Positions 24,798-57,197 of a DNA stretch of 64,000 nucleotides are shown one piece after another. The position numbers and the translations under genes are program-made. Source of the DNA: a virus. The notes below the pieces were generated by a model. The model saw only the letters and a program-made list of their open reading frames with translations, had not been told where the DNA came from and did no database searches. The DNA is taken from IMG/VR virus record IMGVR_UViG_3300045988_123324, positions 32,001 through 96,000 of that record. One strand, given 5' to 3'. Each line of letters begins with the position of its first letter. Within the stretch, counting starts at the first letter, position 1.

Positions 24798-25673
24798 TTA
24801 GAACAACTCCTTCATTGTTTCCTTGATCTTATCTGTAACCATAACATTCAATAACTTAAAATTAACATTTGGATTCTTATACTTCTTAACGAAGTTATAC
24901 GTTTCTTCTTTTACAAACTCACGCCACACAACGCCAATAAGTCTAGGAATCATTTTACTGTTCCACTCACCAGCATCATTCACAATCTTCTCATACTCTT
25001 TTCGGATAAACTGCTCTGTGCAAAAGTTATCAACTATATCCTTTTCAACACTCTTACCATCAATAGGTTTATTTGCTTTCTTTGTCTGCTTAAACTCCCC
25101 GCGAACTATCTTAGCCCATGTAGTTCGACCATATTTATTTGTGTAGTCATATCGCTTTACACAAATACCCTCGCCAAGATTTCCTTCTGTTTGTAGAAAT
25201 GTGCATTTATCAACATATTCTCTTACTTGTTCCTCTGTCGGATTTTCAGGTTTTGCAATCAGCGGAATATACTCAATTCCAAATTCTTCGAGCATCGGAA
25301 CATATTCTTCATAAGCAAGATATGAGCCATCCTCTCGCATAACATCAAAAACATACAGCTTTCTCCAAGCATCCTCTTCGTATGTGCGAATATGGTGCTT
25401 TACAAGCCATTCACCATACAGATAAACATTTGTGTGTTTCTCAAAAAACTTCTTGAATTTTTCTTGGGATAATACATAAGCATATGATCCTGCATTATCA
25501 TTTTCTATAGTAAGTTGTCTGTTTCTGCTTCCTCCACATACAACACCATCTTTATCAAACAGCACCATGTTACTTCCATCCAACTTCGTAAACAGATACA
25601 CAGTTCCATTAAGTATTCCTTCAACCTCTGACGTTCCAAGTCTTTCGACATGCTGATACTTCTGATAAATCAT
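24798..25673 (-). CDS. ATP-dependent RNA/DNA ligase (nucleotidyltransferase superfamily, Rnl2-like size)
   Basis: KxDG adenylation motif FTKLDGSN near the N-terminus, and a later YLYGEW motif. At 291 aa it is too short for a classical DNA ligase with an OB domain. Confidence 0.6.
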   Translation of the reverse strand: MIYQKYQHVERLGTSEVEGILNGTVYLFTKLDGSNMVLFDKDGVVCGGSRNRQLTIENDNAGSYAYVLSQEKFKKFFEKHTNVYLYGEWLVKHHIRTYEEDAWRKLYVFDVMREDGSYLAYEEYVPMLEEFGIEYIPLIAKPENPTEEQVREYVDKCTFLQTEGNLGEGICVKRYDYTNKYGRTTWAKIVRGEFKQTKKANKPIDGKSVEKDIVDNFCTEQFIRKEYEKIVNDAGEWNSKMIPRLIGVVWREFVKEETYNFVKKYKNPNVNFKLLNVMVTDKIKETMKELF

Positions 25674-31602: not shown

Positions 31603-32159
31603 TTTTACCCCCATATATTTTTATCTCACCAGAACCTTGTGTATCTACTGAGTGCAAAATTCCCATGTCTGCAAGGATGCTACTTAAAAGACTTGTTACA
31701 GTTTCATCTTGTGTATAAATAGTTCCTTTCCCTTCATCTATGAGGTCTTGAATGGCTTTCCTTGCTTTATTCTTGCTAGTCAAAGCTATACTAGCAAGTT
31801 CCGTAGATGTGATTCCCACTCTGTAACCCCCTAAAGAAAGCATGGATATGGTCAACAAGCACGCCCATATTCTGAAAATCAACATATTTATGAAATACTG
31901 GATTTGCATAATCAATTTTTCCGTTCTTTTTGCATTTAAAGAACATAAGCTCACAGTAGTTGTCAAGCTTTGCTAAACTACAATGGTATACAGTTCCACG
32001 AAACTCAATACCCTGATAGAGAGCACCAGTAAGACCAATACCACTACTAGATGGAAGGAAAGTATATTCCCTATTCTCTTCCTCTTTGCGTCTGCGATCT
32101 TCCCGATCTTTTGATTCAAACTCAATCCATGCAGGATCTTTTGTATAATCATATGCCAT
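31595..32159 (-). pseudogene. hypothetical protein with a C-terminal wHTH-like segment, split by a frameshift at a G5 run
   Basis: The frame from 32159 stays protein-like up to ..HIHAFFRG. The +1 frame continues GYRVGITSTELASIALTSKNKARKAIQDLIDEG. The junction is at CCCCC (plus strand, 31827-31831). Confidence 0.55.
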
Positions 32160-32239: not shown

Positions 32240-32698
32240 TTAAAAATCTTTTCCTCTGTATAAAATTCTTTGATTTGAACTGCCCCTAAACTCAAGGTTT
32301 AAGTCTCTTAGTTCGTCAACATATCTTCCATCTACCAAGACATCTATATACTTTAGTATTTCATCCTTTCCGTTGACTTTTAGTTCTTCTAGTGTATATC
32401 CCGTGTAACACCACTTCTCCTTATTATCTATGCTTTTAGCCAATTTTAGTATAGTAGAATAGTTTTCATCTGCTAATGGCTCTCCTCCAAGAAATGAAAC
32501 TCTTTCAATGTATGGTCTTGATACAAGGTAAAAAAACTTATTTTCTATTTCACTTGTCCAAATCTTTCCTTCTTGGAAGTTCCATGTTGTCTGATTAAAG
32601 CAATTTTTACAATGAAAATGGCATCCTTGCACAAACAGTGCAACACCAATTCCACGCCCGTTGCTTATATCCATATCTCTTAAACTAGCATATCTCAT
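32240..32698 (-). CDS. nrdG: anaerobic ribonucleotide reductase activating protein (radical SAM)
   Basis: CHFHCKNCFN (CxxxCxxC) cluster, 152 aa, overlaps the end of nrdD. Confidence 0.85.
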   Translation of the reverse strand: MRYASLRDMDISNGRGIGVALFVQGCHFHCKNCFNQTTWNFQEGKIWTSEIENKFFYLVSRPYIERVSFLGGEPLADENYSTILKLAKSIDNKEKWCYTGYTLEELKVNGKDEILKYIDVLVDGRYVDELRDLNLEFRGSSNQRILYRGKDF

Positions 32699-33698
32699 GA
32701 TTATCTAAGTGAACATACCTTTCTTTTATTTCTTGTGTACGTCCTTGATTAAAGAAATTGGTGCTCAAATATCCACAAACCCTGCGTGTTATATTCATCT
32801 TCTCATGGTTTGTGTTGCCACAATTAGGACATCTCCAATCTAGCTTTCCATTATTATCGTAAATCTCAAACTCTCCTTCATACATACACTCATGACAGTA
32901 GTCGGATTTTGTGTTTATTTCTGCATATTGAGACGTTTCATAAATATACTTTATGAACTGTAACAGTGCTTCTACATTATTCATCATGTTTGCACTCTCA
33001 CAGTATGAGATGTTTCCTCCACCACTCAGTAATTGAAACTTAGACTCAATAGCCAGCTTATCAAACGGATTTATCTCTTCCCCAACAAATACATGATATG
33101 AGTTTGTGATGTAATTTCTATCAGTTATTCCTTCAATCTTTCCAAACCTACTTTGTAGACACTTAGCAAACTTATATGTGGTGGATTCTATTGGAGAACC
33201 ATAAGGAGAATAATCAATATCTTCTTCTTCTTTCCATTTATTGCAAGCATCATTAAGTTTTTGCATAACAGTAAGACCGAACTCTTCTCCTTCTGCATTG
33301 TCCGTATGTGAATGTCCAGTCATATACTTTACACACTCATATAAACCAGCATATCCTAGACTTACGGTTGCATACCCGCCTTTAATAAGTCTATCTATTG
33401 TTTCACCCGTCTTTAATCTTGCAAGCGCACCATGTTGCCATAAAATAGGTGCAACATCTGATACTGTTCCAAAAAGTCTGGATAATCTTTCCTTATGCGC
33501 CTTGTGACAAAGCTCCATTCTTTCTTCAAGTATATCCCAAAACAGATCTTTATCACCACCAGAAGATAACGCCACATCTGGTAGGTTTAATGTAACGACT
33601 CCACAATTAAAGCGACCCCAATACTTCTTACCTTTTACCCAATTATTTGCATTTGCAATGTTTGTTTCTACTCTATCTTTGGTTAAAAAACTTCTGCA
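32685..33698 (-). CDS. nrdD: anaerobic ribonucleoside-triphosphate reductase, exon 3
   Basis: Frame is open upstream of the track start and reads CRSFLTKDR..VVTLNLPDVALSSGG. C-terminal zinc site CHEC..CPNCG and glycyl-radical motif RRVCGYLS. Confidence 0.85.
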   Translation of the reverse strand, partial: CRSFLTKDRVETNIANANNWVKGKKYWGRFNCGVVTLNLPDVALSSGGDKDLFWDILEERMELCHKAHKERLSRLFGTVSDVAPILWQHGALARLKTGETIDRLIKGGYATVSLGYAGLYECVKYMTGHSHTDNAEGEEFGLTVMQKLNDACNKWKEEEDIDYSPYGSPIESTTYKFAKCLQSRFGKIEGITDRNYITNSYHVFVGEEINPFDKLAIESKFQLLSGGGNISYCESANMMNNVEALLQFIKYIYETSQYAEINTKSDYCHECMYEGEFEIYDNNGKLDWRCPNCGNTNHEKMNITRRVCGYLSTNFFNQGRTQEIKERYVHLDNHEIC

Positions 33699-34457
33699 CG
33701 TTTTTATCCTATGTCACCATAGGCACTGACTATATCATAACATAGTAACCCATGTTCTCATACGCTTCCAGCGGTGCTTATCCCCACCGTACCATCGAGT
33801 CAACCTCCCGATGCCGAGTTATTCCCTCGAAAATAGTCGATGAACTTTATTCAACAACAAATTCCCAATCAGTATAGTTATTTCTGCTACCACTCAGAAA
33901 TGTTTTGATTCTATGTCTTTCAACACCTGTAATTCTTTGTGCTTCCCGCATAGAACTACAGTGGATTATTTCTCCTGTATATTTATTTTTCACAACAAGA
34001 TTAACACTTTTCTTACTCAAGTAATACCCATTATCATAAGCGTGTTTTATATTTTTACTATGAGTGGAACGCTCTAGGTTTTCAAGTCTATTGTCTGATT
34101 TATTACCATTTATATGATTTACAACCTGTGGATTTCCTAAAAATGTTTCCCCCATAAGCCTATGAACACGTTTCCTATACCTTTTCCCACGAATATGTAG
34201 TACACAGTGCTCATATAAATCTGTTCCAATATAAGATGAAATTAGTCTCATTGTTTCCTTATTTAATATTTTTCCGCTTTTACTGATTGCATATTTATCG
34301 AATCTCTTTATGGTAGTAAATTCTTCGTTGTTGAATCTTAGCACAGACTCAAGTTTATTATTACTCATAATTAACTCCTATCTGTTAGCATGGCTCATGC
34401 CACACACCCAGCAAGCAACTGGTTCATATAAGTTTTACATGGGCTACATTTACACTT
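33699..34457 (-). mobile_element. group I intron carrying an HNH homing endonuclease ORF
   Basis: Interrupts ..WSCMG|CRSFL.. of NrdD. The upstream exon ends in U (GGU) and the intron ends in G. The 3' 150 nt are GC-enriched and ORF-free. Confidence 0.75.
33847..34368 (-). CDS. intron-encoded HNH homing endonuclease
   Basis: NUMOD4-like N-terminus (FDKYAISKSGKILN), HNH_3 core (VNHINGNKSDNRLENLE..HSKN) and a C-terminal HTH-like SMREAQRITGV. Confidence 0.8.
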   Translation of the reverse strand: MSNNKLESVLRFNNEEFTTIKRFDKYAISKSGKILNKETMRLISSYIGTDLYEHCVLHIRGKRYRKRVHRLMGETFLGNPQVVNHINGNKSDNRLENLERSTHSKNIKHAYDNGYYLSKKSVNLVVKNKYTGEIIHCSSMREAQRITGVERHRIKTFLSGSRNNYTDWEFVVE

Positions 34458-34766
34458 ACCCATACAACTCCAAACATCACCTTTGTTCTTTTTCATAACT
34501 TTAGCAGAGATGTAGTCTGGAACAAGTCTCTTTGCAGTGCATTTTGCTGCAAGTTTTGTTAAATACCAATATGGAGCATCTTCTGTTGTATTATCTTCAT
34601 CAAGAACATAAAGGAGCTTTGGAAAAGCAATAGAAAACCTCTGCCCAACGCTGTTTTTCATACCATCAATGCGCTGTTTGAAAAACTCCTCAATTAACAT
34701 GGCAAGCTCTTCTTTATATTCTTGTTCTTCTTGTGTATACATATATATGCTTAAAAATGGCGATTG
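34458..34766 (-). CDS. nrdD: anaerobic ribonucleoside-triphosphate reductase, exon 2
   Basis: Reads QSPFLSIYMYTQEEQ...FPKLLYVLDE...AKCTAKRLVPDYIS...WSCMG. 309 nt, so the introns are phase 0. Confidence 0.8.
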
Positions 34767-35081
34767 CGGATGCCATCAATCCGTAGACTATATCTTCACC
34801 ATATCACCATGTTGGTGACTTAGGTGCGGTGCGCTTCGGGTAATGAACTTTCACCACTACCCTACTCTACTCATTTACTCCCTAATAAATTATTAGGTAC
34901 ACTTTCGATAGTCGTTGCACTTTTCTGCTTTCACAGACTTAGCACAGGATTAGTTCCCTTCCCCTGTTAGCATGATACCGAGTTGTCATTTCCTACAACG
35001 CCTAAACGTGTATCATACACCCTAGATTTCTAAGTTCACACCGTTCAAATATAGTGTTTCCACCATACCGAGCCAATCTTA
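34767..35081 (-). mobile_element. ORF-less group I intron (315 nt)
   Basis: Splits ..SMTNVNG|QSPF... The 5' exon ends in U and the last intron nt is G. The segment has no ORF and is visibly GC-richer than the exons. Confidence 0.7.
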
Positions 35082-35933
35082 ACCATTAACATTGGTCATA
35101 CTATTTAGTTGATAATTAAATGTCTGAACACTATCACTTACTTCCTTCTTTATATCAATATCTGCAAACTTATTTGCCTGTTCCTCCGATAAGCCATTTT
35201 CTATGTACTTTTTATAATATAGTTTTCTGCTATCTCTTACAAATGGCGATAAATGTCCCAAACAAACAGAAGCACCACCGTAACTCATAGAAGTAACTGC
35301 AAGTATTATTTGTGTTGCTATGGTAGTCGCAGTTAAAAGTCTGTGTGGTTTATCAATTCTAACACCGTTTATTACTGTACCATTTTGTAACATATCATCA
35401 AGATTTATTAACTCGCAATTATGTATTCTCTGGCAACTATAGTCCATATCGTGTATATGGATGACACCATCGTTATGTGCTTGAATAACATCTGGTGAGA
35501 ATATATATCGCTCTGCAATATCCTTGCTGACAACTCCTGCTATATAATCCCTTTTAGTGCTAACAAGAAGTGAGTTTTTATTTGAGTTCTCTTCTTTCCA
35601 ATATTCACTTTTATCCCCGATCAAGTCCTTTAGTTCTTCATCCACAGTGTTCTTTGATCTTTGAAACTCTCTGATACTCCTATATCCTTCATAGGACTTT
35701 GCTGTTAGCTTTTGCTTATGCGAGATTAGCTTTGAGAATACAAGCGTCTCTATCTCTTGTATAGTTACAAGTTCCTTGTCTGATTCTATCAGCTCATTTT
35801 CAATTTCATCTGCTATATTATTTGCGATCTTTTCTGAATAAACATTTCCTGCTCTCATGGCTTTTAGTATAGCAACACTGATTTTATTCTTATCAAAAGC
35901 AACTATTCGTCCGTCACGTTTTTCTACTTTCAT
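35082..35933 (-). CDS. nrdD: anaerobic ribonucleoside-triphosphate reductase, exon 1 (ATP-cone plus N-terminal core)
   Basis: MKVEKRDGRIVAFDKNKI is the ATP-cone start. It ends ..YQLNSMTNVNG, followed by an in-frame intron stop. Confidence 0.85.
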
Positions 35934-36722: not shown

Positions 36723-37060
36723 TTATTTTTCTCCCTAAAAGATACTGAATATGTTCTTGAAACATCGACACAACCAGAAAATTCTTCTGCTGAAATTTCC
36801 CCACTAGCCAGAGAATCTTCTAGTTTTTCTTCATCAATTACTGTTTTTAGTAACCACTTTGCACCTATCTTCTTGGCAATCTCTGTTGCCTTTTCTTGAT
36901 TTAGTCTCTGCGTGACACGCTCTTTTACTAATGCAACATATCTTTCTCCATCTGAACTTCCTTCTCCTGCCGACTTAATATCAGCTTTCAGATCATTCAA
37001 CTCTTTTGTGAGTTCAGTAATATGCTTATTTAGTTCAGCGGCTCTATCAATCTTGTTCAT
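36719..37060 (-). CDS. hypothetical coiled-coil protein
   Basis: 113-aa ORF with a 4-nt overlap with its neighbour. Confidence 0.45.
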   Translation of the reverse strand: MNKIDRAAELNKHITELTKELNDLKADIKSAGEGSSDGERYVALVKERVTQRLNQEKATEIAKKIGAKWLLKTVIDEEKLEDSLASGEISAEEFSGCVDVSRTYSVSFREKNK

Positions 37061-37554
37061 TATTTATCCTCTGTGTATAGATGCAGTCTCATAGCCCACT
37101 TAATTGGAACAAATTTTGTCTTAAACCACAACTTAATACGTTTTGTATTCAACTTATCAACACTGCACGGAAACTCAATTTTCTTACTACTTTCATTACA
37201 GTGAAAGTACAAATCATCCATTGGTTCTTTAAACACATATGCATTATTATATCGAGCAACACCATTTTCCATGAAAACAGAAGGGCATCGTATATTTTGC
37301 TTAACCCCATCAAATGATTCCTTCCATTCCCAATCTTCTACTGTAAGATTTGTAAGTGGTTTATAGTCAATAAGATCACAAATAATGTCCTTAACGTATG
37401 CTATAGACATTCCAGAATGTCCCTGTTTCTCAAGAACTTTAATGACTTCTAAAATATTTTCATTTATTCGTCTTTGTAGCTCTTTTTCACTATCACCATC
37501 ACAACTATTCTCAATAATTTCTAGTTCTCTCTTAGCAAATTCGTAAGCTGACAT
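37060..37554 (-). CDS. hypothetical protein
   Basis: 164-aa ORF. Confidence 0.45.
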   Translation of the reverse strand: MSAYEFAKRELEIIENSCDGDSEKELQRRINENILEVIKVLEKQGHSGMSIAYVKDIICDLIDYKPLTNLTVEDWEWKESFDGVKQNIRCPSVFMENGVARYNNAYVFKEPMDDLYFHCNESSKKIEFPCSVDKLNTKRIKLWFKTKFVPIKWAMRLHLYTEDK

Positions 37555-39783: not shown

Positions 39784-40091
39784 TCATCTTCATCCTCTAT
39801 CTCATATGATTCTAAATGGACAGAATCCTTATCTACTTCTACAATTTCGTCTGAAAATTCTAGCCCATGAAGTAACTCATTCTTGTGCCGTTTCCAAAAC
39901 TTCTTTGCTTCTTTCTTCGATTCAAACAATCCAGTGATTCCCTCTCTAAGAGGAAACCACTGTAAATAAATATCGTCAGCATAGCAAAGAATCCTATCAT
40001 TATTTGCATTTACACCGTCTGCAACAATGTTAAATGTTGTCATAAAACTTCTCCCACTTTGTATTACCACTCCTATATACTTTGCAAGCAC
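39780..40091 (-). CDS. hypothetical protein
   Basis: 103-aa ORF. Confidence 0.4.
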   Translation of the reverse strand: MLAKYIGVVIQSGRSFMTTFNIVADGVNANNDRILCYADDIYLQWFPLREGITGLFESKKEAKKFWKRHKNELLHGLEFSDEIVEVDKDSVHLESYEIEDEDE

Positions 40092-41709
40092 CCAACTTCA
40101 ACATAACATAATCTTCTTTATTTGGTGCATCTTTGTCATATGCTTCTTGCAACAATTCTGGAAAGTCTCTTTTAAGATTTTTAAGTCTACAAGCCTCTCG
40201 TTTTATTTCTTTCCCGCCGATATACCAATAGTATCGCGGAGTACACTGACCACTGTTTGTAAAACCAAGTCTCTCATAAATATTTCCAACGAAATAGTCA
40301 TTCATGCTATAGCTAAGAATATAGGTTGGTTTATAGTCTTTTTCAAATGCTTTCAACAATTTATTTGCACCACCAACAACAGTATAACCATCTTTAACAC
40401 AATATCTGTGCAATTCATATTGCCCCTCTTTAGTTTTATTCATTCGTAGTTTTCCAAATGACATTACCGCAAGCAATTCATCGTTATGAAATAATCCATA
40501 ATTTATCTTCATTGTTGCTTTATTTGCACCTTGTATATGATACTTGTCAACAAAATCACAAGCAACCTCATCATCAATAATTGAAACAACACACTTTCTT
40601 GCAAAAATCTTATTTTGTGCGGCAATAAGCGACTTAATATACATTTTTATTTTCTCTTTATTATTTTCCCAGTCTACATCAAATATTGTAATAAGATGTA
40701 TACCTGATTTCTTTGATTCCAAAAACTTATCTCTATGATAATATTTATCTTTATCAGAGTAGATACTTCCGTAGGTTGAGTGGAAAGCAGATCCACAATA
40801 TTCAATTCCAATATTCTTTTCTGCTATCAAAATATCAATTTCCTTCCCGTGCAAAATCTTTCTGTCATGCTTTATGGTATCTACGCCAATATCAGCCACA
40901 AAATCTCCTATTTCATTTTCTGCCTTTGACCCGTTGTGTGAAACACTATTGCACCCACAAGAACTAATAAACCCATTTTTTACTTTATATGGATCATAGA
41001 TTCTCTCATTTCCGCAATCACATTTAAACTTCCACATAGCCCTTCCATTAATATATCCTGCATACTCAACCGCAACCAACATATTAAATCTACGATCTTT
41101 TATATCAATAAGATTTTCTCTTGCTAGTTCTCTTCGCAAGCATCCACAAGACCTTGTTACACCGTCAACTAAATATGCACGGCTTACAATCTTTGTGTTT
41201 CCACAGTCGCACTGGCAGAACCAATATGGCATACCGTCTTTTACGTGATGAATATAAATAGGTTTAAGCCTATCAAATTTATCTTTTGATAAATCCTTAT
41301 ATTTCCCAGTGTTTAATTCTTTTGCATTTTTTGATGCAATTTCCTTATGTAGGCAACCGCAAGACTGAGTGTTTTTTGTTCTAAGATTACCTGCACTAAC
41401 AACAACTTCATTCCCACACTCACACTTGCACCTATATTTATTACCTTCAAGTCTTTCAATAGGCATTAACCTACCACAGGGTACACCAACAAGAGATTTG
41501 ACTAGCTTTTCTTGTGGCTTGTAGCACTTTCCACAAGATACAATCCTCTTATTCGTTAGATGGCTATATCTAATTACTTTTTCTGTGCCACAATCACATC
41601 GACAAAGATAGTAAAACTGGTATCTCGAATCTTGATGGTCAAAGGCAATTATTTTCAGTCTTTCAAACCTTTCTCCAATATGAATATTTGGATCTGTCTT
41701 TTTTCTCAT
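40030..41709 (-). CDS. putative free-standing homing-type endonuclease: 4 zinc-ribbon repeats, a Vsr/DUF559-like nuclease and a C-terminal YHIQG domain
   Basis: Four C.CDCGN....SCGC repeats, then GKEIDILIAEKNIGIEYCGSAFH. The C-terminal domain is collinear with that of 15619-17115. Confidence 0.6.
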   Translation of the reverse strand: MRKKTDPNIHIGERFERLKIIAFDHQDSRYQFYYLCRCDCGTEKVIRYSHLTNKRIVSCGKCYKPQEKLVKSLVGVPCGRLMPIERLEGNKYRCKCECGNEVVVSAGNLRTKNTQSCGCLHKEIASKNAKELNTGKYKDLSKDKFDRLKPIYIHHVKDGMPYWFCQCDCGNTKIVSRAYLVDGVTRSCGCLRRELARENLIDIKDRRFNMLVAVEYAGYINGRAMWKFKCDCGNERIYDPYKVKNGFISSCGCNSVSHNGSKAENEIGDFVADIGVDTIKHDRKILHGKEIDILIAEKNIGIEYCGSAFHSTYGSIYSDKDKYYHRDKFLESKKSGIHLITIFDVDWENNKEKIKMYIKSLIAAQNKIFARKCVVSIIDDEVACDFVDKYHIQGANKATMKINYGLFHNDELLAVMSFGKLRMNKTKEGQYELHRYCVKDGYTVVGGANKLLKAFEKDYKPTYILSYSMNDYFVGNIYERLGFTNSGQCTPRYYWYIGGKEIKREACRLKNLKRDFPELLQEAYDKDAPNKEDYVMLKLGACKVYRSGNTKWEKFYDNI

Positions 41710-46298: not shown

Positions 46299-47384
46299 TT
46301 ATGTTTTATTCCACAATGTCTTACCACACCTATATACAAGAAATCCATTATAGTTATAGGATGTCGGTTCGACTTGCCCCATTTCTTTGTACCCAAAGTT
46401 TTGTAACCATAACCCATTATCCCAATCATTATCGGTTGTGGTAATCGTTGACCTTGGTACAACTCTATTCTCATTGTTTGTAACAATGTCAAATATTCTG
46501 CTAAAAATTTCTTTTTTATTATTTAAATAATCAATATCAAAAATAGTTATCAGCCTTATTCCAAGAGACTTTGCTAAAAGGAACTTGTCTCTGTGGTAAT
46601 ATTTATCTTTATTTGAAAAAGTTCCATTCTCTGTGGCGTGACACCAACTACCATTATACTCAATTCCGATTCTTAATTCTGGTATGTATATATCTATTTC
46701 TTTTCCATTTAAGACTCTTGACTTTTTAATATCAATACCAAGCAAAATTCCTTGAAGATATTCAAATAATTCAACCTCTGGTTTTGATGTTTTATTAAGC
46801 ATCCTCAAACATCCGCAACTCGTTGTGTGTCCAGATTTTAAGTGGTCTATTGCAACAACAGTTTCATTGCCACAGTCACATTTACATTTCCAAAATGTTT
46901 TAGTATCAACATGATCTTCAGATAAAACTAATAATCTATTAAATCTCATTCCAGTTAAATCAACAAAATTACTTCTTCTTTTATTTTTTAGACAACCACA
47001 AGATTTAACAGTTCCAGAAACAAGTCTATCTTGCACAACATCAATCGTTCCACCGCAATCACATTTACAGTGCCAGTATGATCTTCCTTTACGGCGTTTA
47101 TCTTTCTTATACCCAAGAAATGAATCAACAATAAGATTTCCAAACCGTTTTCCAACCATATTGGCAGTATTTGCTTCTCTTGCCCTTTCTACTGTTATAC
47201 ATCCGCAAGATTTGACATGACCGTTTCTAAGATGTGCTGTTTTAACAAACACTTCATTACCACAATCACACTCGCATCTCCAATACTTTGCACCATCTTT
47301 AGAATATGCAAACTCAATCACAGTGAGGTTATTGAACTTTTGTCCTGTTAAATCTATCAATTTCATGTGCATACATCCTTTCAA
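46299..47384 (-). CDS. putative free-standing homing-type endonuclease: 3 zinc-ribbon repeats and a Vsr/DUF559-like nuclease, no C-terminal domain
   Basis: Three W.C.CDCG....SCGC repeats, then GKEIDIYIPELRIGIEYNGSWCH. Inserted between the scaffold and decoration genes. The true start is probably MKLIDL (47366). Confidence 0.6.
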   Translation of the reverse strand: MKGCMHMKLIDLTGQKFNNLTVIEFAYSKDGAKYWRCECDCGNEVFVKTAHLRNGHVKSCGCITVERAREANTANMVGKRFGNLIVDSFLGYKKDKRRKGRSYWHCKCDCGGTIDVVQDRLVSGTVKSCGCLKNKRRSNFVDLTGMRFNRLLVLSEDHVDTKTFWKCKCDCGNETVVAIDHLKSGHTTSCGCLRMLNKTSKPEVELFEYLQGILLGIDIKKSRVLNGKEIDIYIPELRIGIEYNGSWCHATENGTFSNKDKYYHRDKFLLAKSLGIRLITIFDIDYLNNKKEIFSRIFDIVTNNENRVVPRSTITTTDNDWDNGLWLQNFGYKEMGQVEPTSYNYNGFLVYRCGKTLWNKT

Positions 47385-49788: not shown

Positions 49789-51537
49789 TTAGAATCCTAC
49801 AATTCTTGTTGCATCACTTATTTTTGACTTTGGTTGCATATACATCACACCATACCTAAGTGCATCACAATTATGTATAATAATATCTGACGTAGTGACT
49901 GCAAAACAATGAGTATCTTCTACCTCCATATTATATACATCTTCGTTTTCATGTTTATCTATATGAACAAGTTTTGTATGTGATACTGATGTTTTAATCA
50001 AATCTTCTGTTGTAATGTCTTTTGCCTCTACCCAACCACGATTTACTGTCAAAATCCTATGATCTGGTGTAACATTCAATATGTCTCTTGTATCAAATAC
50101 AAGAGAAATTACTTCTGTATCTTTTCTTGTCATATGAACATCAAAGAATCTTCTCGTGCAACAATATCCATTTTCATCACATGTGATAAGTTCTCCTGTT
50201 TTTCCAACGAGATCTTCTATTGGTATATAACCTTCTGTTGTATTTATCAATGTATCACCAGTTATGCAGGCGTGATCGTCAACCTTACGAGGAAGATCGA
50301 CTCCCCTAAGTTGCGCTTTCTCATCCCAAACGTATGTCTGTAGCTCTCTTATGAGATTTTCACACTGTTCCTCTATCAATATTTTTCCTTGTCCCATGTC
50401 AGACGCAACTGTCCTTATTCCTGGGAGAACATCATTTATAGCATTTTTTGTTTTCATGTGAAATCTTCGTGCCTGTAGTTTAAAACTACTTGCAGAAGGG
50501 TCAACAACTACAACAATCTGTCTGTATGTTCTCTGTGTTAATTCTGTTTCTTCGTTTATAAAATCTCTTAGATCATTTACATATTCTATATCTGTTTTTT
50601 GTGCTTCTTGGTTTCCGTCCTCTTCTTTTACTGCGGCTCGTCCATCAAAATAATATTCTTTGCATACATATATAGTATTATCTATGGTCTTACCGAGCAG
50701 TAAAAATGCTGTCGGGTTTGCTGTGCCTATATCACAACACACACACCAATCTATTATATCTTCATACGGAATATCCGATTGCTTTATGACATGTTCTTTT
50801 TTCTTAAACATATCATATATCAATCCGTCTGCAACCACCCATTTGCCTTCAATGTATCGTTTTGCAAACACGCCACTAAAATTTTTCTTATATCTATCAA
50901 GAACATCTTGTGGTAATGATAAATTATCTTCCATATTAAAATGAACGTATAATCCATCTTTCTCTCTTAGTTTCTTTAATACATTCTTATAAAACCAATG
51001 ATGTGGAGAAGATGGGTTACAATTTATAAACAACTTTGCTCCATCAATAGATAAACGAGATACTGCTTGATTGTAAAAAGACTCTGGCATTAGAACTGCT
51101 TCGTCTAGCAAAAGACCTGCAAGTGTCATACCTTGAATGAGATCTTGTGATGATTCGTCCTTACCACCAAAGATAAAGAAGTAATTTACTACCTCACACT
51201 TAATTATTTCTATGTAGTTCTCTGATCTGTGTTCAATAACATCATAATCTAATGCCATAAGCATCTGTTTCAATGTCATAAGCACGTTTCTTCTGAACGA
51301 TCCTACTGATTTACCACACATCGCAGCATTTTGTTGATTAAACGTGTTCATCATAAACAAAACAAAGGATAACGCCATGCTTACTGTCTTTCCGCTGCGA
51401 ATCGCGCCGTCAGCAATAAGCATAAACGAATCATTTACTGGCGATTTTTCTGTCCACCAACTTAGAACCTTTAATTGCTTGTTTGAAAAGGGTTTAAATT
51501 TAAATGCTGATAATTTCAGTTTCTTGTTATTAGCCAT
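49789..51537 (-). CDS. terL: terminase large subunit containing a mini-intein
   Basis: Walker A ADGAIRSGKT, Walker B LLLDEA, nuclease motifs VVVVDPS and DDHA|..|CDALRY, split by a 133-aa Hint domain. Confidence 0.9.
   Translation of the reverse strand: MANNKKLKLSAFKFKPFSNKQLKVLSWWTEKSPVNDSFMLIADGAIRSGKTVSMALSFVLFMMNTFNQQNAAMCGKSVGSFRRNVLMTLKQMLMALDYDVIEHRSENYIEIIKCEVVNYFFIFGGKDESSQDLIQGMTLAGLLLDEAVLMPESFYNQAVSRLSIDGAKLFINCNPSSPHHWFYKNVLKKLREKDGLYVHFNMEDNLSLPQDVLDRYKKNFSGVFAKRYIEGKWVVADGLIYDMFKKKEHVIKQSDIPYEDIIDWCVCCDIGTANPTAFLLLGKTIDNTIYVCKEYYFDGRAAVKEEDGNQEAQKTDIEYVNDLRDFINEETELTQRTYRQIVVVVDPSASSFKLQARRFHMKTKNAINDVLPGIRTVASDMGQGKILIEEQCENLIRELQTYVWDEKAQLRGVDLPRKVDDHACITGDTLINTTEGYIPIEDLVGKTGELITCDENGYCCTRRFFDVHMTRKDTEVISLVFDTRDILNVTPDHRILTVNRGWVEAKDITTEDLIKTSVSHTKLVHIDKHENEDVYNMEVEDTHCFAVTTSDIIIHNCDALRYGVMYMQPKSKISDATRIVGF
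49870..50268 (-). mobile_element. mini-intein (133 aa, no endonuclease domain) in the terL nuclease motif
   Basis: Block A is CITGDTLI, block B is TPDHRILT, and the C-terminus is IIIHN followed by the +1 Cys. Excision restores VDDHA-CDALRYG. Confidence 0.85.
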
Positions 51538-52213: not shown

Positions 52214-52271
52214 TCTCCTTTCTAAATATTATATTTAATTATAACACAATTAATTTGTAAAGTCAATAGAA

Positions 52272-52302
52272 AACACAAAAAGCCCACCATTTCTGGTGAG
52301 CC
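52272..52302 (-). terminator. intrinsic terminator closing non-coding block A
   Basis: Minus strand reads GCTCACCAGAAATGGTGGGCTTTTTGTGTTTTC. Confidence 0.75.
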
Positions 52303-52990
52303 TTATGCGGAAAGGAGACAATTAAAATGAACTAGGACTTCATAAGACTTTCGCCTTACTCCGTCTGTGAGACTAGGCAGGTAAACGCGAATACCATTTT
52401 GCCTAGAGAACACACACGTCTGTCAAAGAACCACTTTATAAGATGTGGTAGAAATACTCCGTGTAAGTCATTTCTATAGCGGCTACATACCCAACGCGCT
52501 TTCCACATCCAGTAGCCATTGCAACAACACCATTATCTTGTTGCTCCCAATCTAGGTTGAAACCTTATCTTCTCTGTAGCAGGATTTTTGGATTTGCACC
52601 AAAGTCTTACAACTGGTTTTGTTGTATGTTCTTCTGTTAAACTAAATCCGCATGGTCGGGCATACAGGTAACGCTCCTGTGTCTTGGGTTTATAAGACCC
52701 CTGCACTCACTTTTGTGCTAATGCCCAATATTTCTTATGTAGCCCCACCCATCGCCCATAAGTTGAAGCCATTCTGACATTCTGCTTTGAGTTGTCAAGC
52801 ATGCGCTTCCTCCTGCTGTTTGTACTTTTGGCTTTTATTATCTAGGCACAGCCTACTCGCACATCATTTTGTTATATATCAGTATTTTGTTTTGCTGTTT
52901 GTGCCTACTCACAAGACGCTTATGGACACCTGCTGTGTTAGATTTGATTTCAGTTCAAATTTATAAATGATTTGCTGTCTGCGTCTTTAT
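52272..52990 (-). ncRNA. candidate large structured non-coding RNA A (approx. 0.7 kb)
   Basis: No ORF of 60 aa or more on either strand. Has its own promoter (52997-53025) and terminator. Long-range helices pair 52981-87 with 52913-19 (AAGACGC/GCGTCTT) and 52900-07 with 52843-50 (TAGGCACA/TGTGCCTA), plus CTAGGCA..TGCCTAG. GC-rich patches sit in AT-rich surroundings. Confidence 0.55.
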
Positions 52991-52996
52991 GTATAT

Positions 52997-53025
52997 ATCT
53001 TACCACATCTTTTTACTGTTGTCAA
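52997..53025 (-). promoter_or_regulatory. sigma-A-type promoter TTGACA-17-TAAGAT driving block A
   Basis: Minus strand reads TTGACA, then ACAGTAAAAAGATGTGG (17 nt), then TAAGAT. The -10 overlaps the stop codon of the upstream vWA gene. Confidence 0.6.
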
Positions 53026-54547
53026 CCCTAATTTCAAAAATTTTATCAACAATTTCGTATCGTGGTAAATTAAGTTGCTTTACAAGAGCCTTATACGGAT
53101 CTAGCTCACTTGACATCACCATATCCATAAGATTCTTGCTGAATCCACTGATAAGAATTACTCCATTTTCATTCTGCGTGAGAGGTACTGTGTTTGTCCT
53201 AGAATTTACGTTCCAGAAAACTAACTTTGGAAGTTTATATCCTTCCTTCTTGTACTTTTCCGCTATGGTTTCAAACAACGCTTTATTGCCCTTTTCATTG
53301 TAATATCCTTGCGCCATGTTGAACTCCATATCACTCACAATTAGTACAGTCTTTGGCATATCTTCTTGTGATACGCCATTCTTTACTGCGGTGTCAAGAA
53401 TAAGATCAAAAACACTCTCAATATTCGTACTTGAAATATCATCATATTTTGCAAGATATTTGAGCTTATCATGAAGATTATCAAGATGTGATACATCAAT
53501 CAACTTAGCCCATGAACTAAACGTGATGAACTTGTCTTTGAACGCTCCTTCATTATTCTCTGCACAATAAAGAGTGATTGCATCTGCAACTTCAAGTGCG
53601 GTAAGACCTGACTTATCAACTGGAACAGTCATAGATCCGCTACCATCACGAACAACAACAGTATCGCTAAACCCATTACACTTATCCTGTGCTTTCCATA
53701 GTTGCTCAAGTGTCTCGTCATAATCCTTATGCACGGCACACCATTCACCAAACTCTGCGTAAGCATGGACAATATCATGGAGAAACATAGCGTTTGCATT
53801 GATCTTTGTCTCACCCTTCTTGAGTGATTCAAGATACTTTTCTCTGCGCTCCCCATCATGACGCTCAAACGCATTACGATAGTTTACATTAGCCTTTGAT
53901 GGAACTGCTGAGTAGTCAATTTCTCCCCACTCATTTTCAGACATCTTACGCTCAACAACATCAATATATGCACGTAGTTCTGATAAAATCTTTCGATATT
54001 CGCTCTTTAGCATACCAAGATAATTGCAGATCATCTTTGCTTTTGCACAAGTTTCTTTACTGCTTGCATTGATGCTAGGAAGCCATTTTGCCAGGAGTGA
54101 TACAGATTTCTTATCATCCATATCTTGCATATCATTCACAAGTTGCTTGTCAATCTTATCTAAAATCATATTGCGAATAAAATCATTGTCTGTACGATAG
54201 GCAATATCTACGTAATCATCCCATCGACCATATTCCGCAATATCAACTTCCTTAATAAAGATATTGGCAAGATCAACATCATATGAGATAAGTTCAAGCA
54301 CAAAGTCTCTAAATGATTTACGCTCGCCGATTCCTTCTCGAACATCCCTAAGATAAAGAAGCCACTTGAGCGTCAGCTTTTCATCCTCATTGAGTGCTTG
54401 CTTAAACAAGTCCTTATCAATAGTCTTTCTAAATGAAGGTACTTGAAAATTTAGATCAACTAACTTACTTCCAGATGTTTTAAATCCAACAGCACCATTC
54501 TCTGTTACTGACTTTTCGTCATTCTCAATCATTTTCATAAAATCCAT
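53000..54547 (-). CDS. DUF2828-type protein: helical TROVE-like N-domain plus C-terminal vWA domain
   Basis: N-terminus ..SVTENGAVGFKTSGSKLVDLNF resembles the DUF2828/TROVE start. The C-terminus has a vWA MIDAS-like VVVRDGSGSM and later VLIVSDMEFN. Confidence 0.6.
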   Translation of the reverse strand: MDFMKMIENDEKSVTENGAVGFKTSGSKLVDLNFQVPSFRKTIDKDLFKQALNEDEKLTLKWLLYLRDVREGIGERKSFRDFVLELISYDVDLANIFIKEVDIAEYGRWDDYVDIAYRTDNDFIRNMILDKIDKQLVNDMQDMDDKKSVSLLAKWLPSINASSKETCAKAKMICNYLGMLKSEYRKILSELRAYIDVVERKMSENEWGEIDYSAVPSKANVNYRNAFERHDGERREKYLESLKKGETKINANAMFLHDIVHAYAEFGEWCAVHKDYDETLEQLWKAQDKCNGFSDTVVVRDGSGSMTVPVDKSGLTALEVADAITLYCAENNEGAFKDKFITFSSWAKLIDVSHLDNLHDKLKYLAKYDDISSTNIESVFDLILDTAVKNGVSQEDMPKTVLIVSDMEFNMAQGYYNEKGNKALFETIAEKYKKEGYKLPKLVFWNVNSRTNTVPLTQNENGVILISGFSKNLMDMVMSSELDPYKALVKQLNLPRYEIVDKIFEIRVDNSKKMW

Positions 54548-54748: not shown

Positions 54749-54835
54749 TGGTGCTGACAGCGAGATTCGAACTCGCACCCACTTAACTAGAACGGTTTTT
54801 GAGACCGTCGTGTCTGCCAATTCCACCATGCCAGC
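54749..54835 (-). tRNA. tRNA-Leu(CAA): tRNA-Leu, anticodon CAA (type II, long variable arm, CCA encoded)
   Basis: Cloverleaf folded by hand. Acceptor GCTGGCA/TGTCAGC, anticodon stem ACGGT/ACCGT, loop CTCAAAA, T arm GCGAG-TTCGAAT-CTCGC. 87 nt. Confidence 0.9.
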
Positions 54836-54847
54836 ATTATATCATAT

Positions 54848-55087
54848 TCAAATTCCAAAGTCAAGTCTTTCTTTTGGAATTTCTTGTTCGTATTCTGTAC
54901 GATAGATTACAACCTTTTCTGCATCATACTTATTATATAACCCAGTTGATAGCAAAATCGCATCCATCTCAGTGTGTACTTCACATAGGATCATATTTCC
55001 GTGTGTTTCTACATTACTGCATAAAGTTTCTAGCTTTTCTACAAGCTCTTTGTTTACTTCTTTATAGTAAGATTTAACGAGAATCAT
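54848..55087 (-). CDS. hypothetical 79-aa protein lying between tRNA genes
   Basis: Start taken at MILVKSYYKE (AAGGAAG RBS). The longer ORF-track start would overlap tRNA-Arg. Confidence 0.45.
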   Translation of the reverse strand: MILVKSYYKEVNKELVEKLETLCSNVETHGNMILCEVHTEMDAILLSTGLYNKYDAEKVVIYRTEYEQEIPKERLDFGI

Positions 55088-55111: not shown

Positions 55112-55187
55112 TGGTACGCCTAGAGGAACTCGAATCCCCGACAAGTGCTTTAGAAGAACACTGCTCTTCCAACTGAGCTATAGGCGT
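55112..55187 (-). tRNA. tRNA-Arg(TCT): tRNA-Arg, anticodon UCU (CCA encoded)
   Basis: Acceptor ACGCCTA/TAGGCGT, D arm GCTC-AGTTGGAA-GAGC, anticodon loop CTTCTAA, T arm GGGGA-TTCGAGT-TCCTC. 76 nt. Confidence 0.9.
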
Positions 55188-55191
55188 ATTA

Positions 55192-55267
55192 TGGAGCTTC
55201 TAGCTAGGATTGAACTAGCGACCTACTGATTACAAATCAGTCGTTCTACCAACTGAACTATAGAAGC
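55192..55267 (-). tRNA. tRNA-Thr(TGT): tRNA-Thr, anticodon UGU (CCA encoded)
   Basis: Acceptor GCTTCTA/TAGAAGC, D arm GTTC-AGTTGGTA-GAAC, anticodon loop TTTGTAA, T arm GCTAG-TTCAATC-CTAGC. 76 nt. Confidence 0.9.
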
Positions 55268-55268
55268 A

Positions 55269-55552
55269 TGGTGGAGCTGACGGTATTGAAACCGTGTCCA
55301 GAGACTACTTTCATATAAACCTTATACACGCTTGTTGAAAAGGTTTTGGTAGATTAGGTCTACCAGCCCAATGACATAGTTGGTTTTATTAGACCACTAA
55401 CAACATAACCAACTAGAAAAGTTATTAGTAGTTGCTTTTAAGCCGCTAGGCTGTAAACTTCGTTTTCGTCAGTTCTTTTGTTTGCTGTTTTACTGGTACG
55501 CCCCAGACGTGAGTTTATATGTAGTTTTCCTCTGTCGAAACCTTTCAGCCCC
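55269..55552 (-). ncRNA. ssrA: tmRNA (transfer-messenger RNA), 284 nt
   Basis: 5' end GGGGCTGAAAGGTTTCGACAGAGG and 3' end GGACACGGTTTCAATACCGTCAGCTCCACCA, matching the canonical tmRNA ends. Internal frame GCA AAC AAA AGA ACT GAC GAA AAC GAA GTT TAC AGC CTA GCG GCT TAA (55438-55485) encodes ANKRTDENEVYSLAA. Confidence 0.85.
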
Positions 55553-55570
55553 GTTACAGTTCTTATTATA

Positions 55571-56314
55571 TCACTGTGAAACATCTTTGTCAAGCATTTT
55601 TTCTGCTTTTTCTTTTGATTCTTTTATTATAGAAATATCTCTCTCGCAATCTGCCTTTATAAATCTTAGATTGATTCCATTTTTCTTGCAAGTCTTAATA
55701 AATTTTCTATATTCTATTTCACTCACAAGATTACTTCTCCCATTTATTGCTTCAACAATATAATCATCTAAGTAAAATACATCAACATTCTTTATTGGTG
55801 ATACATTCATATTTTGGCTATATGCAAAAGTATAAACAGCACACATCAAAGAAAGTTCAAGTGCGTTTATCTCTGTAATCTTAAAGAAAGGCTCTTGGTA
55901 TGTAATTTCTCCATTCTTAACAACTGTATAAGAACAAACATTCTTGTAATTGCCTAAATATATCTTTAAGTAATCTTCTTCAAAAAATAATCTAATTTTC
56001 TTTCTCTTCTTTCTCTCTATTATTCTATATTCCTCAGACAGTCTATATACTATATCTCTTTTGGCAAGACGATCTGTCATTAAAGAAAGTTGTTCTCTAA
56101 AATCTTCAAGACTATATGTATCTTTATACAAATTGCAATCGTGACAAGAAGGATTCAAGTTACTTTCATCATCAGTACCACCTTTACGTACTGCTAAGAT
56201 ATGATCTACTCTTAGATTTTTTCTATCTTCTATGAGTTTTCCACAGTATGCACACCTCTTACCATACTTCATCCACACATTCTGTCTTGTTTTATCTTGT
56301 ATTTTGCTTCGCAT
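55571..56314 (-). CDS. HNH endonuclease with an extra C-terminal domain
   Basis: CAYCGK....VDHILAVRKGGTDDESNLNPSCHDCNLYK HNH core at the N-terminus. The C-terminal 130 aa loosely resemble an RNase H-like layout (TEINALELSL..DVFYLDDYIV). That resemblance is weak. Confidence 0.7.
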   Translation of the reverse strand: MRSKIQDKTRQNVWMKYGKRCAYCGKLIEDRKNLRVDHILAVRKGGTDDESNLNPSCHDCNLYKDTYSLEDFREQLSLMTDRLAKRDIVYRLSEEYRIIERKKRKKIRLFFEEDYLKIYLGNYKNVCSYTVVKNGEITYQEPFFKITEINALELSLMCAVYTFAYSQNMNVSPIKNVDVFYLDDYIVEAINGRSNLVSEIEYRKFIKTCKKNGINLRFIKADCERDISIIKESKEKAEKMLDKDVSQ

Positions 56315-56354: not shown

Positions 56355-56384
56355 ATTATATCACAAGGTAAATGCTTCTGTCAA
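56355..56384 (-). promoter_or_regulatory. sigma-A-type promoter TTGACA-18-TATAAT
   Basis: Minus strand reads TTGACA, then GAAGCATTTACCTTGTGA (18 nt), then TATAAT, upstream of the HNH gene. Confidence 0.6.
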
Positions 56385-57106: not shown

Positions 57107-57135
57107 ATTATATCACAGAAAAAACCGCTTGTCAA
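57107..57135 (-). promoter_or_regulatory. sigma-A-type promoter TTGACA-17-TATAAT driving block B (divergent partner of the early promoter)
   Basis: Minus strand reads TTGACA, then AGCGGTTTTTTCTGTGA (17 nt), then TATAAT. Confidence 0.65.
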
Positions 57136-57168
57136 CAGTTTTTTAAAATTTTTTTTATTAAATTAGTA

Positions 57169-57197
57169 TTGACAAACTGATTTTATTTTGATATAAT
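57169..57197 (+). promoter_or_regulatory. sigma-A-type promoter TTGACA-17-TATAAT (first plus-strand early promoter)
   Basis: TTGACA, then AACTGATTTTATTTTGA (17 nt), then TATAAT. Its -35 lies 34 bp from the -35 of the divergent promoter. Confidence 0.7.

Follow-up and report, generated by a model that had tools for sequence, protein, structure and literature searches.

Introduction

Cluster C mycobacteriophages such as Bxz1 encode a transfer-messenger RNA (tmRNA), the product of the ssrA gene. Complete tmRNAs have been counted in 402 of 18,146 phage genomes, with a frequency given as 2.3% (PMC9004378), and have also been reported in huge phages (PMC7162821). A further example is found in a 64,000-nucleotide (nt) stretch of viral DNA, positions 32,001 to 96,000 of the IMG/VR record IMGVR_UViG_3300045988_123324 (hereafter the window), for which a preliminary description made from the sequence had proposed a phage-encoded compact tmRNA at positions 55269-55552, and had called tmRNAs rare in phages, as the published frequency indeed makes them.

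Shortened tmRNAs are known as well. Natural tmRNAs span 250-425 nt (250 nt in Synechococcus PCC7009), and parts of their pseudoknots (PK1 to PK4) are missing in several lineages: Oenococcus oeni lacks helix 4, cyanobacteria and organelles lack PK3, Rickettsia lacks PK2, and some tmRNAs lack PK1 (PMC1168896). All four pseudoknots of the Escherichia coli tmRNA, PK1 included, can be replaced experimentally (PMC2481249).

Set beside the standard one-piece tmRNA (Rfam RF00023; E. coli SsrA), the compact gene shares the acceptor stem of 7 base pairs (bp) with its G3.U pair, the discriminator A and CCA, the GGUUUCGAC motif, a long helix P2, a T arm with UUCRA, an A-rich spacer with an A at position -4, a short tag ending in LAA, and a stop codon beside helix P5. 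It differs in its length (284 nt versus about 350-363 nt), in the reduction of PK1 to a 4-bp hairpin, in a 3' domain with room for no more than a single pseudoknot and a hairpin where the standard form has three pseudoknots, in a T loop of 6 rather than 7 nt, in a resume codon that is probably GAC (Asp) rather than GCA (Ala), and in being phage-borne, without an adjacent smpB. Like the naturally reduced tmRNAs, it has lost pseudoknots or collapsed them to hairpins while keeping the tRNA-like and mRNA-like domains, and its length falls within the 250-425 nt range; unlike them, it combines the loss of helix P4 with that of about two 3' pseudoknots, and its reduction can be dated to a narrow clade of phages, the sister members of which carry full-size genes. 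With other phage-encoded tmRNAs it has in common that a large phage of virulent type carries a complete ssrA together with tRNA genes; unlike them, it belongs to a clade that is missed by ARAGORN, the tool of the published surveys (PMC9004378, PMC7162821), and in which compact and full-size forms occupy one orthologous locus, and it comes from a phage of roughly 110 kb with an anaerobic Firmicute-type host. Some huge phages encode SmpB, whereas none was found in the 64 kb examined here.

By comparing the compact gene with its relatives on other contigs, we arrive at the view that it is probably a working phage ssrA, a reduced one-piece tmRNA kept by selection and adding ribosome rescue in infection. 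Phage tmRNAs and reduced tmRNAs are both already known; the occurrence of both forms at one orthologous phage locus and the invisibility of a whole clade to ARAGORN are modestly new, and the gene is otherwise an ordinary example of a known phenomenon.

A complete tmRNA gene in the window

Throughout, tmRNA nt n corresponds to window coordinate 55553-n on the minus strand, and L-numbers (L002, L133 and so on) denote related or comparison contigs or loci. The RF00023 covariance model spans 55552..55269 (minus strand) end to end, covering model positions 1-374 with 79.5 bits (gathering score 47) and E = 3.4e-29, and so places a complete one-piece tmRNA (ssrA) gene of 284 nt at exactly the coordinates first proposed; the match is far above chance level. 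The canonical termini seen in the preliminary description are present at both ends of the minus strand, GGGGCUGAAAGGUUUCGACAG at the 5' end and GGACACGGUUUCAAUACCGUCAGCUCCACCA at the 3' end. The minimum free energy (MFE) of the molecule is -79.2 kcal/mol, against -60.7 +/- 4.6 for dinucleotide shuffles (z = -4.0; 0 of 200 shuffles as stable), and an unconstrained RNAfold prediction recovers the acceptor stem (nt 1-7/274-280), P2 (nt 19-45 with 223-254), the P3 hairpin (nt 47-60) and the T arm. Judged by this score, by compensatory changes among its relatives and by its phage gene context, which together bear out the original proposal, the compact phage-borne tmRNA is a genuine gene.

Structure of the compact molecule

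In the tRNA-like domain, the 5' strand of the acceptor stem, GGGGCUG (nt 1-7; 55546..55552, minus strand, like all parts of the tmRNA given below), pairs with CAGCUCC (nt 274-280) in a stem of 7 bp that includes a G3.U278 pair and is followed by the discriminator A and CCA. G3.U, the alanine identity pair, is invariant in all six compact copies that were assembled (see below), and so is the rest of the stem, except for a change of U6-A to U6.G in L124. The next segment (nt 8-18; 55535..55545), placed by the Rfam alignment, holds the D-loop analogue and the conserved GGUUUCGAC motif, which agrees with the Rfam consensus GGaUUCGAC at high posterior probability; L124 has one additional G in this region. 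At the other end, the T arm ACGGU-UUCAAU-ACCGU (nt 258-273), the acceptor 3' strand and the encoded ACCA occupy 55269..55295, and the T arm is backed by covariation, its closing pair U262-A269 being C-G in L003, L124 and L143. The T loop, UUCAAU, has 6 nt where 7 are standard, one short as had been remarked; a 6-nt loop UUCRAU is common to all six compact copies, and the unrelated tmRNAs L116 and L119 also have a 6-nt T loop. The T-loop motif and the D-loop analogue (GGNUUCGAC) are thus found together without an anticodon arm, the mark of a tRNA-like domain.

The long helix P2 was located by the unconstrained MFE fold for its 5' strand (P2a nt 19-23, P2b-d nt 28-45; 55508..55534) and by fold and comparison for its 3' strand (nt 223-254; 55299..55330). 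The preliminary description had drawn a P2-like helix between CAGAG..CUAC and GUAG.CUCUG; this helix is present and longer, CAGAG/CUCUG and ACUAC/GUAGU being extended by 13 more pairs to 23 in the MFE fold. All its variable pairs are preserved except for a C29.U248 mismatch in L003 and L143. The 3' strand is followed by a conserved GAC, and such a GAC ahead of the tmRNA T arm has been described (PMC1168896).

PK1 is represented by helix 3 only, the 4-bp P3 hairpin CUGG-GGCGUA-CCAG (nt 47-60; 55493..55506), in which the pair G49-C58 is replaced by U-A in L003 and L143; no convincing P4 was found in the compact form. A residual 4-bp P4 (G52-C69, C53-G68, G54-C66, U55-A65) was considered and rejected, as it is broken by C69A in L143. 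The missing helix 4 is not disqualifying, since O. oeni also lacks it (PMC1168896) and PK1 is replaceable (PMC2481249).

At the end of the tag frame, four invariant bp directly before UAA form the P5 hairpin AGCC-UAGC-GGCU (nt 101-112; 55441..55452). From the stop codon to P2 there are 107 nt, room for one pseudoknot or nested hairpin plus one hairpin. The central structured domain (nt 121-176; 55377..55432) can adopt two alternative folds: an H-type pseudoknot, with 121-132/149-160 (12 bp) and 140-146/168-174 (7 bp), or a nested hairpin, with 150-156/161-167 inside 138-146/168-176. Every substitution is compatible with both; the series A-U, G.U, G-C at 155-162 appears to favour the nested fold. 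Further on, the hairpin GGUAGA-CCUAA-UCUACC (nt 189-205; 55348..55364), which we read as a 3' pseudoknot remnant, shows a compensatory series in which the 191-203 pair runs from U-A through U.G to C-G among the copies. The compact tmRNA would therefore contain one pseudoknot at most and possibly none, in keeping with the shorter molecule with fewer pseudoknots that had been expected (284 nt, PK1 shrunk to a 4-bp hairpin, 107 nt from stop to P2).

Compact copies and evidence of selection

Pattern scans, together with contigs recovered via homologues of the Ro60-like protein encoded near the tmRNA, gave six compact copies from independent samples (window, L002, L003, L122, L124 and L143), 283-288 nt long and at least 90% identical; the five besides the window's are 90-94% identical to it and score 81-89 bits with RF00023. 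Further IMG/VR pattern scans found no additional copies, and BLAST searches of GenBank phages with the tmRNA and its 19-kb context gave no match. In a genome collection, nearly all matches to the 19-nt 5' end were Mycobacterium ssrA genes, where the likeness is coincidental; the rest were a few chance matches, and none gave a clue to the host.

Paired positions vary at 17 places across the six copies, and pairing is kept at 16 of them, the sole break being C29.U248 in two copies; full compensatory changes are seen at three pairs, namely 49-58 in P3, 191-203 in the 3' hairpin, and 262-269 closing the T stem. Nt 1-116 are near-invariant. Conservation is highest over the resume-codon block, the tag frame and the stop codon; within the tag frame the six copies differ by a single change, which is synonymous (UAC to UAU). 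As read from this alignment, the substitution pattern is that expected of a functional RNA maintained by selection.

The gene has its own promoter of sigma-70/sigma-A type, TTGACA-17-TATAAT with an extended TG (55565..55593, minus strand; 12/12 consensus match), whose -10 box ends 12 nt before the mature G1 and which is conserved in L002 and L124. The leader between promoter and tmRNA exists in three forms: one of 12 nt (window, L002, L124) and two unrelated ones of ~60 nt, the first in L003 (4554-4641) and L143 (~2750-2810), the second in the compact L122 (218-305) and all full-size copies (L133 5178-5237).

These observations bear on whether the gene is a non-functional relic, that is, a decaying host ssrA acquired by imprecise excision, or an attP-type sequence. 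Prophages often integrate into ssrA and carry ssrA fragments (PMC9004378, PMC11915505), and the shortening is readable as decay; a relic, however, would fit poorly with two full-length ends, a consensus promoter, compensatory substitutions and a conserved frame. Its place is in the middle of the phage genome, not at a prophage-host junction: an HNH gene lies on one side of it and tRNAs on the other, the genome is of virulent type, and no integrase was found in the 64 kb. A tmRNA, compact or full-size, is kept at this position in ten related contigs. We give the relic almost no credence.

Tag frame and resume codon

The likeliest tag frame, from homology to full-size tmRNAs and the Rfam alignment, is nt 83-115 (55438..55470), with the codons GAC GAA AAC GAA GUU UAC AGC CUA GCG GCU UAA (DENEVYSLAA and stop). 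An alternative 5' extension, GCA AAC AAA AGA ACU (ANKRT; nt 68-82, 55471..55485), is open and in frame, so that the frame GCA..GCU UAA translates as ANKRTDENEVYSLAA before the stop. The preliminary description had begun the tag at this GCA: the open frame and the ...LAA end before UAA stand, its start codon probably does not. Comparison with the related genes makes it fairly likely that GAC is the resume codon and the tag (A)DENEVYSLAA, rather than GCA with ANKRTDENEVYSLAA; the C-terminus ...DENEVYSLAA is unchanged whichever start codon applies.

GAC is favoured by a shared block, by the Rfam placement, by spacing, by a tag of 10 residues, and by a substitution in L143. The block GAACU-GAC-GAA is identical in the compact form and in four full-size tmRNAs at the orthologous locus, whose frame reads ...AGU UGA ACU GAC GAA UAC GAA GAU CGU AUU GCU GCU UGA; the in-frame UGA two codons before GAC means that their tag starts at GAC or ACU, giving DEYEDRIAA. 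In the Rfam alignment, the resume codon of the model falls on GAC at high posterior probability. GAC stands 13 nt after the PK1 remnant in the compact form; the corresponding distance is 14 nt in the full-size form and 11-12 nt in E. coli. A79 lies at position -4 relative to GAC (GAACU-GAC), and it is the pentamer ahead of the resume codon, with a near-invariant A at -4, that determines the frame in E. coli (PMC2481249); ten residues are also the modal tag length (PMC11915505). Finally, the GCA first proposed is GAA in L143, and the nt 68-82 extension aligns with the PK1 3' (P4) strand and the spacer of the full-size form. What speaks for GCA is that resume codons most often encode Ala, and that the run GCA AAC, 9 nt, GAC GAA AAC, 6 nt, UAC resembles the E. 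coli tag gene with in-frame insertions, the GAC GAA AAC (D-E-N) codons being the same as in the E. coli tag.

Between the two forms the resume block is conserved but the tags are very different, ending in YSLAA in the compact and in RIAA in the full-size genes. This would suit a proteolysis-directed role, in which the tag and not the rescue would be what counts, an idea raised for other phage tmRNAs (PMC9004378): the phage tag (DENEVYSLAA; DEYEDRIAA in the sisters) might redirect proteins to a protease or adaptor, or speed amino-acid recycling. Within the compact group, however, the tag is invariant, with no sign of diversifying selection, and we regard such a role as decidedly unlikely.

Full-size tmRNAs in sister phages

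Four sister phages (L133, L140, L141 and L142) carry at the same locus a tmRNA of 358-359 nt that scores 98-100 bits with RF00023; their Ro60 proteins are 74-77% identical to the window's, and the gene order is the same. These genes resemble the compact one in locus and gene order, in the 5' motif AAAGGUUUCGACA, in the GAACU-GAC-GAA block, in a tRNA directly after CCA, and in a leader of the type found in the compact copy L122. They differ in length, in the tag DEYEDRIAA, in a true PK1 (P3 ACGAC/GUCGU and a 7-bp P4 UAGAUAA/UUAUCUA), and in a 7-nt T loop, UUCGAUU. Most of the length difference falls in the 3' domain: after the stop codon, the compact form runs on for 169 nt to its 3' end and the full-size form for 239 nt, and 7-8 nt more are missing at PK1. 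The two forms can be aligned only at both ends and over an 18-nt resume block (17/18 identical), with ~60% global identity.

Because the ~60-nt leader of the full-size genes is homologous to that of L122, the tmRNA locus is taken to be orthologous, and the compact form appears to be a remodelled orthologue of the full-size phage tmRNA, minus P4 and ~70 nt of the 3' pseudoknot domain, both of them parts that E. coli tmRNA can have replaced; it may have originated by deletion combined with rapid divergence, or recombination may have exchanged the body of the gene. More distant relatives (Ro60 54-68% identity) have tRNAs at the locus and no tmRNA within 6 kb. The two forms at one orthologous locus, with the same resume block, are a natural pair for finding out what parts of a tmRNA are required in vivo.

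Proposed function

As a working ssrA, the compact gene would be transcribed early by host RNA polymerase from its sigma-A promoter, in one precursor with the downstream tRNAs; by standard tRNA/tmRNA processing, RNase P would cut the 12-nt leader and the 5' end of the adjoining tRNA-Thr, and trimming would expose the encoded CCA. Host alanyl-tRNA synthetase (AlaRS) would charge the molecule via the G3.U pair seen in its acceptor stem, and binding by host SmpB and EF-Tu would be relied upon, host SmpB being needed because no SmpB gene occurs in the 64 kb examined. The tmRNA would then enter ribosomes stalled on broken or non-stop mRNAs, translation would resume at GAC, 4 nt past the conserved A, in the frame indicated by homology, and A-DENEVYSLAA would be appended before the UAA stop, the ...LAA C-terminus presumably routing the product to host AAA+ proteases. 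The phage would gain additional ribosome recycling at a time when mRNA is being fragmented by host and phage nucleases in the course of infection. It is reasonable to suppose that the phage steers ribosome rescue or tagging, as had been suggested.

A shortened molecule might instead act as an inhibitor or decoy, binding SmpB, EF-Tu or the ribosome unproductively and so shutting down host trans-translation. Such a case is the mini-tmRNA of mycobacteriophage DS6A, likewise a phage-borne, shortened tmRNA derivative, which is devoid of a coding sequence and inhibits host tmRNA (PMC11915505); the loss of PK1 and of much of the pseudoknot domain and the T loop one nt short would accord with this. 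Yet the DS6A form is ~65 nt long and without a tag frame, whereas the compact gene keeps a complete mRNA-like domain, tag frame included, and most of P2, and its resume block, tag frame and stop are what is most conserved, the only change being synonymous. We consider a decoy very improbable.

Several points weigh against a working ssrA. ARAGORN, the other search named in the preliminary description, calls three tRNAs in the window and no tmRNA there or in the rest of the clade. The covariation comes from few events (one or two per helix), because the six copies are all at least 90% identical. The 6-nt T loop together with the PK1 loss could reduce activity. The resume codon, most likely GAC, is assigned from homology. 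With a host placed at the level of probable Bacillota, the fit with host SmpB, AlaRS and proteases is a prediction. Lastly, SmpB was not found in the window or related loci (in two bacterial control loci the query does pick it up next to ssrA, E ~1e-32), but this screen covers 64 kb of a roughly 110-kb genome.

The first of these points reflects a limit of sensitivity rather than counter-evidence, since canonical-looking full-size homologues are missed too: ARAGORN calls neither the compact copies nor the full-size syntenic homologues, and it passes over further phage tmRNAs with Rfam scores of 70-124 bits. It does call six bacterial-type tmRNAs, including L116 with the identical 6-nt T-loop length. 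Because surveys and pipelines use ARAGORN, which misses both forms, published frequencies (~2% of phage genomes) are probably underestimates.

Unrelated tmRNAs were also met on viral or tRNA-rich contigs (L001 8662-9013, L004 432-783, L119 2656-3021, L120 9353-9777); these have the same 21-nt 5' end, and tRNAs directly follow each. Those of L001/L004 and L119 are among the ones missed by ARAGORN; L119 is without an encoded CCA, and the T arm of L001/L004 can be read with a loop of 8 nt or, alternatively, with a stem of 6 bp and a loop of 6 nt.

The locus around the tmRNA

Downstream of the tmRNA, and like it on the minus strand, lies an array of tRNA genes identified by both ARAGORN and Rfam. 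tRNA-Thr(UGU) (55192..55267) begins 1 nt past the tmRNA CCA, a junction that would put it on the same transcript, and a tRNA stands within 0-4 nt after the tmRNA in every related locus; tRNA-Arg(UCU) (55112..55187) and tRNA-Leu(CAA) (54749..54835) follow. Between these two, a conserved open reading frame (ORF) of 79 amino acids (aa) with a good ribosome-binding site (54848..55087, minus strand) has no Pfam or PHROG match; an ORF of 79-81 aa occupies the same place in at least six relatives (L133, L134 and L140-L143).

The next gene (53000..54547, minus strand) encodes a Ro60/TROVE plus vWA-like RNA-binding protein of 515 aa (Pfam DUF2828, DUF7788; phrog_850 at 1e-127). For its AlphaFold2 model (pLDDT 79, pTM 0.76), the top eight PDB matches are all Ro60/TROVE proteins (E 3e-10 to 3e-5), Thermus phage Ro60 and Deinococcus Rsr among them, and the protein as modelled has the TROVE HEAT-repeat ring and vWA fold; a PDB sequence search with it was empty. 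About 8000 Ro60-like homologues at E <= 1e-30 were found in metagenomes, many on phage-sized contigs of 80-140 kb.

From the Ro60-like gene to the terminator there are ~790 nt of non-coding DNA (52214-52999, minus strand), which hold a tRNA-Ile(UAU)-like gene (52656..52727, minus strand; Rfam tRNA 47 bits, ARAGORN silent) with an aberrant T loop, AGCGUUA, and without an encoded CCA; relatives have an ARAGORN-called tRNA-Ile(tat) in its place. This element could be a Y-RNA-like partner of the Ro60-like protein; a search for YrlA or Y RNA beside the gene gave no Rfam match in the spacer at E up to 1. A strong intrinsic terminator with an 11-bp stem and a U tract (52279..52304, minus strand) closes the RNA-gene/Ro60 block, upstream of the promoter of the terminase small subunit.

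With tRNAs and a gene for a Ro60-like protein as its neighbours, the tmRNA may be linked to RNA surveillance. It could belong to a counter-defence module, in which it would rescue ribosomes stalled when defence nucleases cut tRNAs, mRNAs or the host tmRNA. The tmRNA heads the tRNA array near the Ro60/TROVE-like protein, and the window also encodes an Rnl2-type RNA ligase in the replication module (24798-25673, minus strand; PF09414 at 7.6e-18, phrog_548 at 9e-35) and a match to Tad3, the Type I Thoeris inhibitor (37060-37554, minus strand; Pfam E 3.8e-28), which is likely an anti-defence gene. Phage tRNAs have been proposed as substitutes for tRNAs cleaved by host defences (PMC10264068), and the TROVE proteins and RNA ligases of large phages have been read as RNA-repair systems (PMC7824862). 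This is, however, guilt by association: the RNA ligase and Tad3 genes lie 17-30 kb off, and the more distant relatives retain Ro60 and tRNAs without a tmRNA at the locus. We think such a module unlikely, though it would refine the explanation of a working ssrA, by saying when the tmRNA matters, without contradicting it. Somewhat more doubtful still is the bolder proposal of a pseudoknot-free or single-pseudoknot tmRNA, recently derived within a phage lineage from a four-pseudoknot ancestor that the sister phages retain, as the rescue arm of an RNA-damage counter-defence cluster (tRNAs, Ro60-like protein, tRNA-like RNA) directed at host nucleases by which translation is stalled; if true, nature would have provided a minimal tmRNA, and the selective advantage of a phage ssrA would have a concrete explanation.

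On its other side, the tmRNA is immediately preceded by an HNH endonuclease gene (55571..56314, minus strand; phrog_2118 at 4e-33, PF01844) with its own consensus promoter at 56384. Further upstream, divergent 12/12 sigma-70-type promoters at 57135 (minus strand) and 57169 (plus strand) lie in a region (57107-57197) that divides a leftward block (HNH, tmRNA, packaging) from a rightward block (HTH, phosphoesterase, PhoH) and looks like an early control region.

Phage genome and probable host

The HNH gene, the replication module and PhoH flank the tmRNA upstream, and tRNAs, the Ro60-like gene, the small (TerS) and large (TerL) terminase subunits, portal and capsid flank it downstream. Structural and packaging genes in the window comprise small and large terminase, portal, scaffold, a capsid of HK97/lambda-E type, major tail protein and a 2064-aa tape measure; genes for replication and nucleotide metabolism comprise DNA polymerase, primase, DnaB, DnaC, thymidylate synthase, dUTPase and the anaerobic ribonucleotide reductase NrdD/NrdG. 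No integrase or repressor was found in the window. A neighbouring protein is 100% identical to an entry from 'Myoviridae sp. ctqfO1', which means that the genome has already been deposited. Four independent sequencing runs contain identical capsid genes, the contigs reaching 109 kb.

Judged by capsid and DNA polymerase, with identities of 40% or less, the closest isolated phages have Clostridium, Streptococcus, Bacillus and related bacteria as hosts. Because of these nearest phages, and because the window has 35% GC, anaerobic NrdDG, AGGAG-type ribosome-binding sites and consensus sigma-A promoters, the host is probably a member of the anaerobic Bacillota, an uncultured Firmicute of gut type.

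NrdD is divided among three ORFs (35079-35933, 34395-34742 and 32685-33575; span 32685-35933, all on the minus strand), with an HNH gene (33847-34368) in one of the gaps, which suggests intron- or intein-type interruptions. The large terminase (49789-51537, minus strand) has a C-terminal Hint/intein-like region (aa 430-556), and in the terminases of relatives (L133 8838-10343; L141 7231-9554) LAGLIDADG/Hom_end domains lie inside or adjoining. At least five HNH or homing-endonuclease ORFs occur in the 64 kb (15619-17115, 33847-34368, 40030-41709, 46299-47384 and 55571-56314, all on the minus strand), one of them directly upstream of the tmRNA promoter and several between structural genes.

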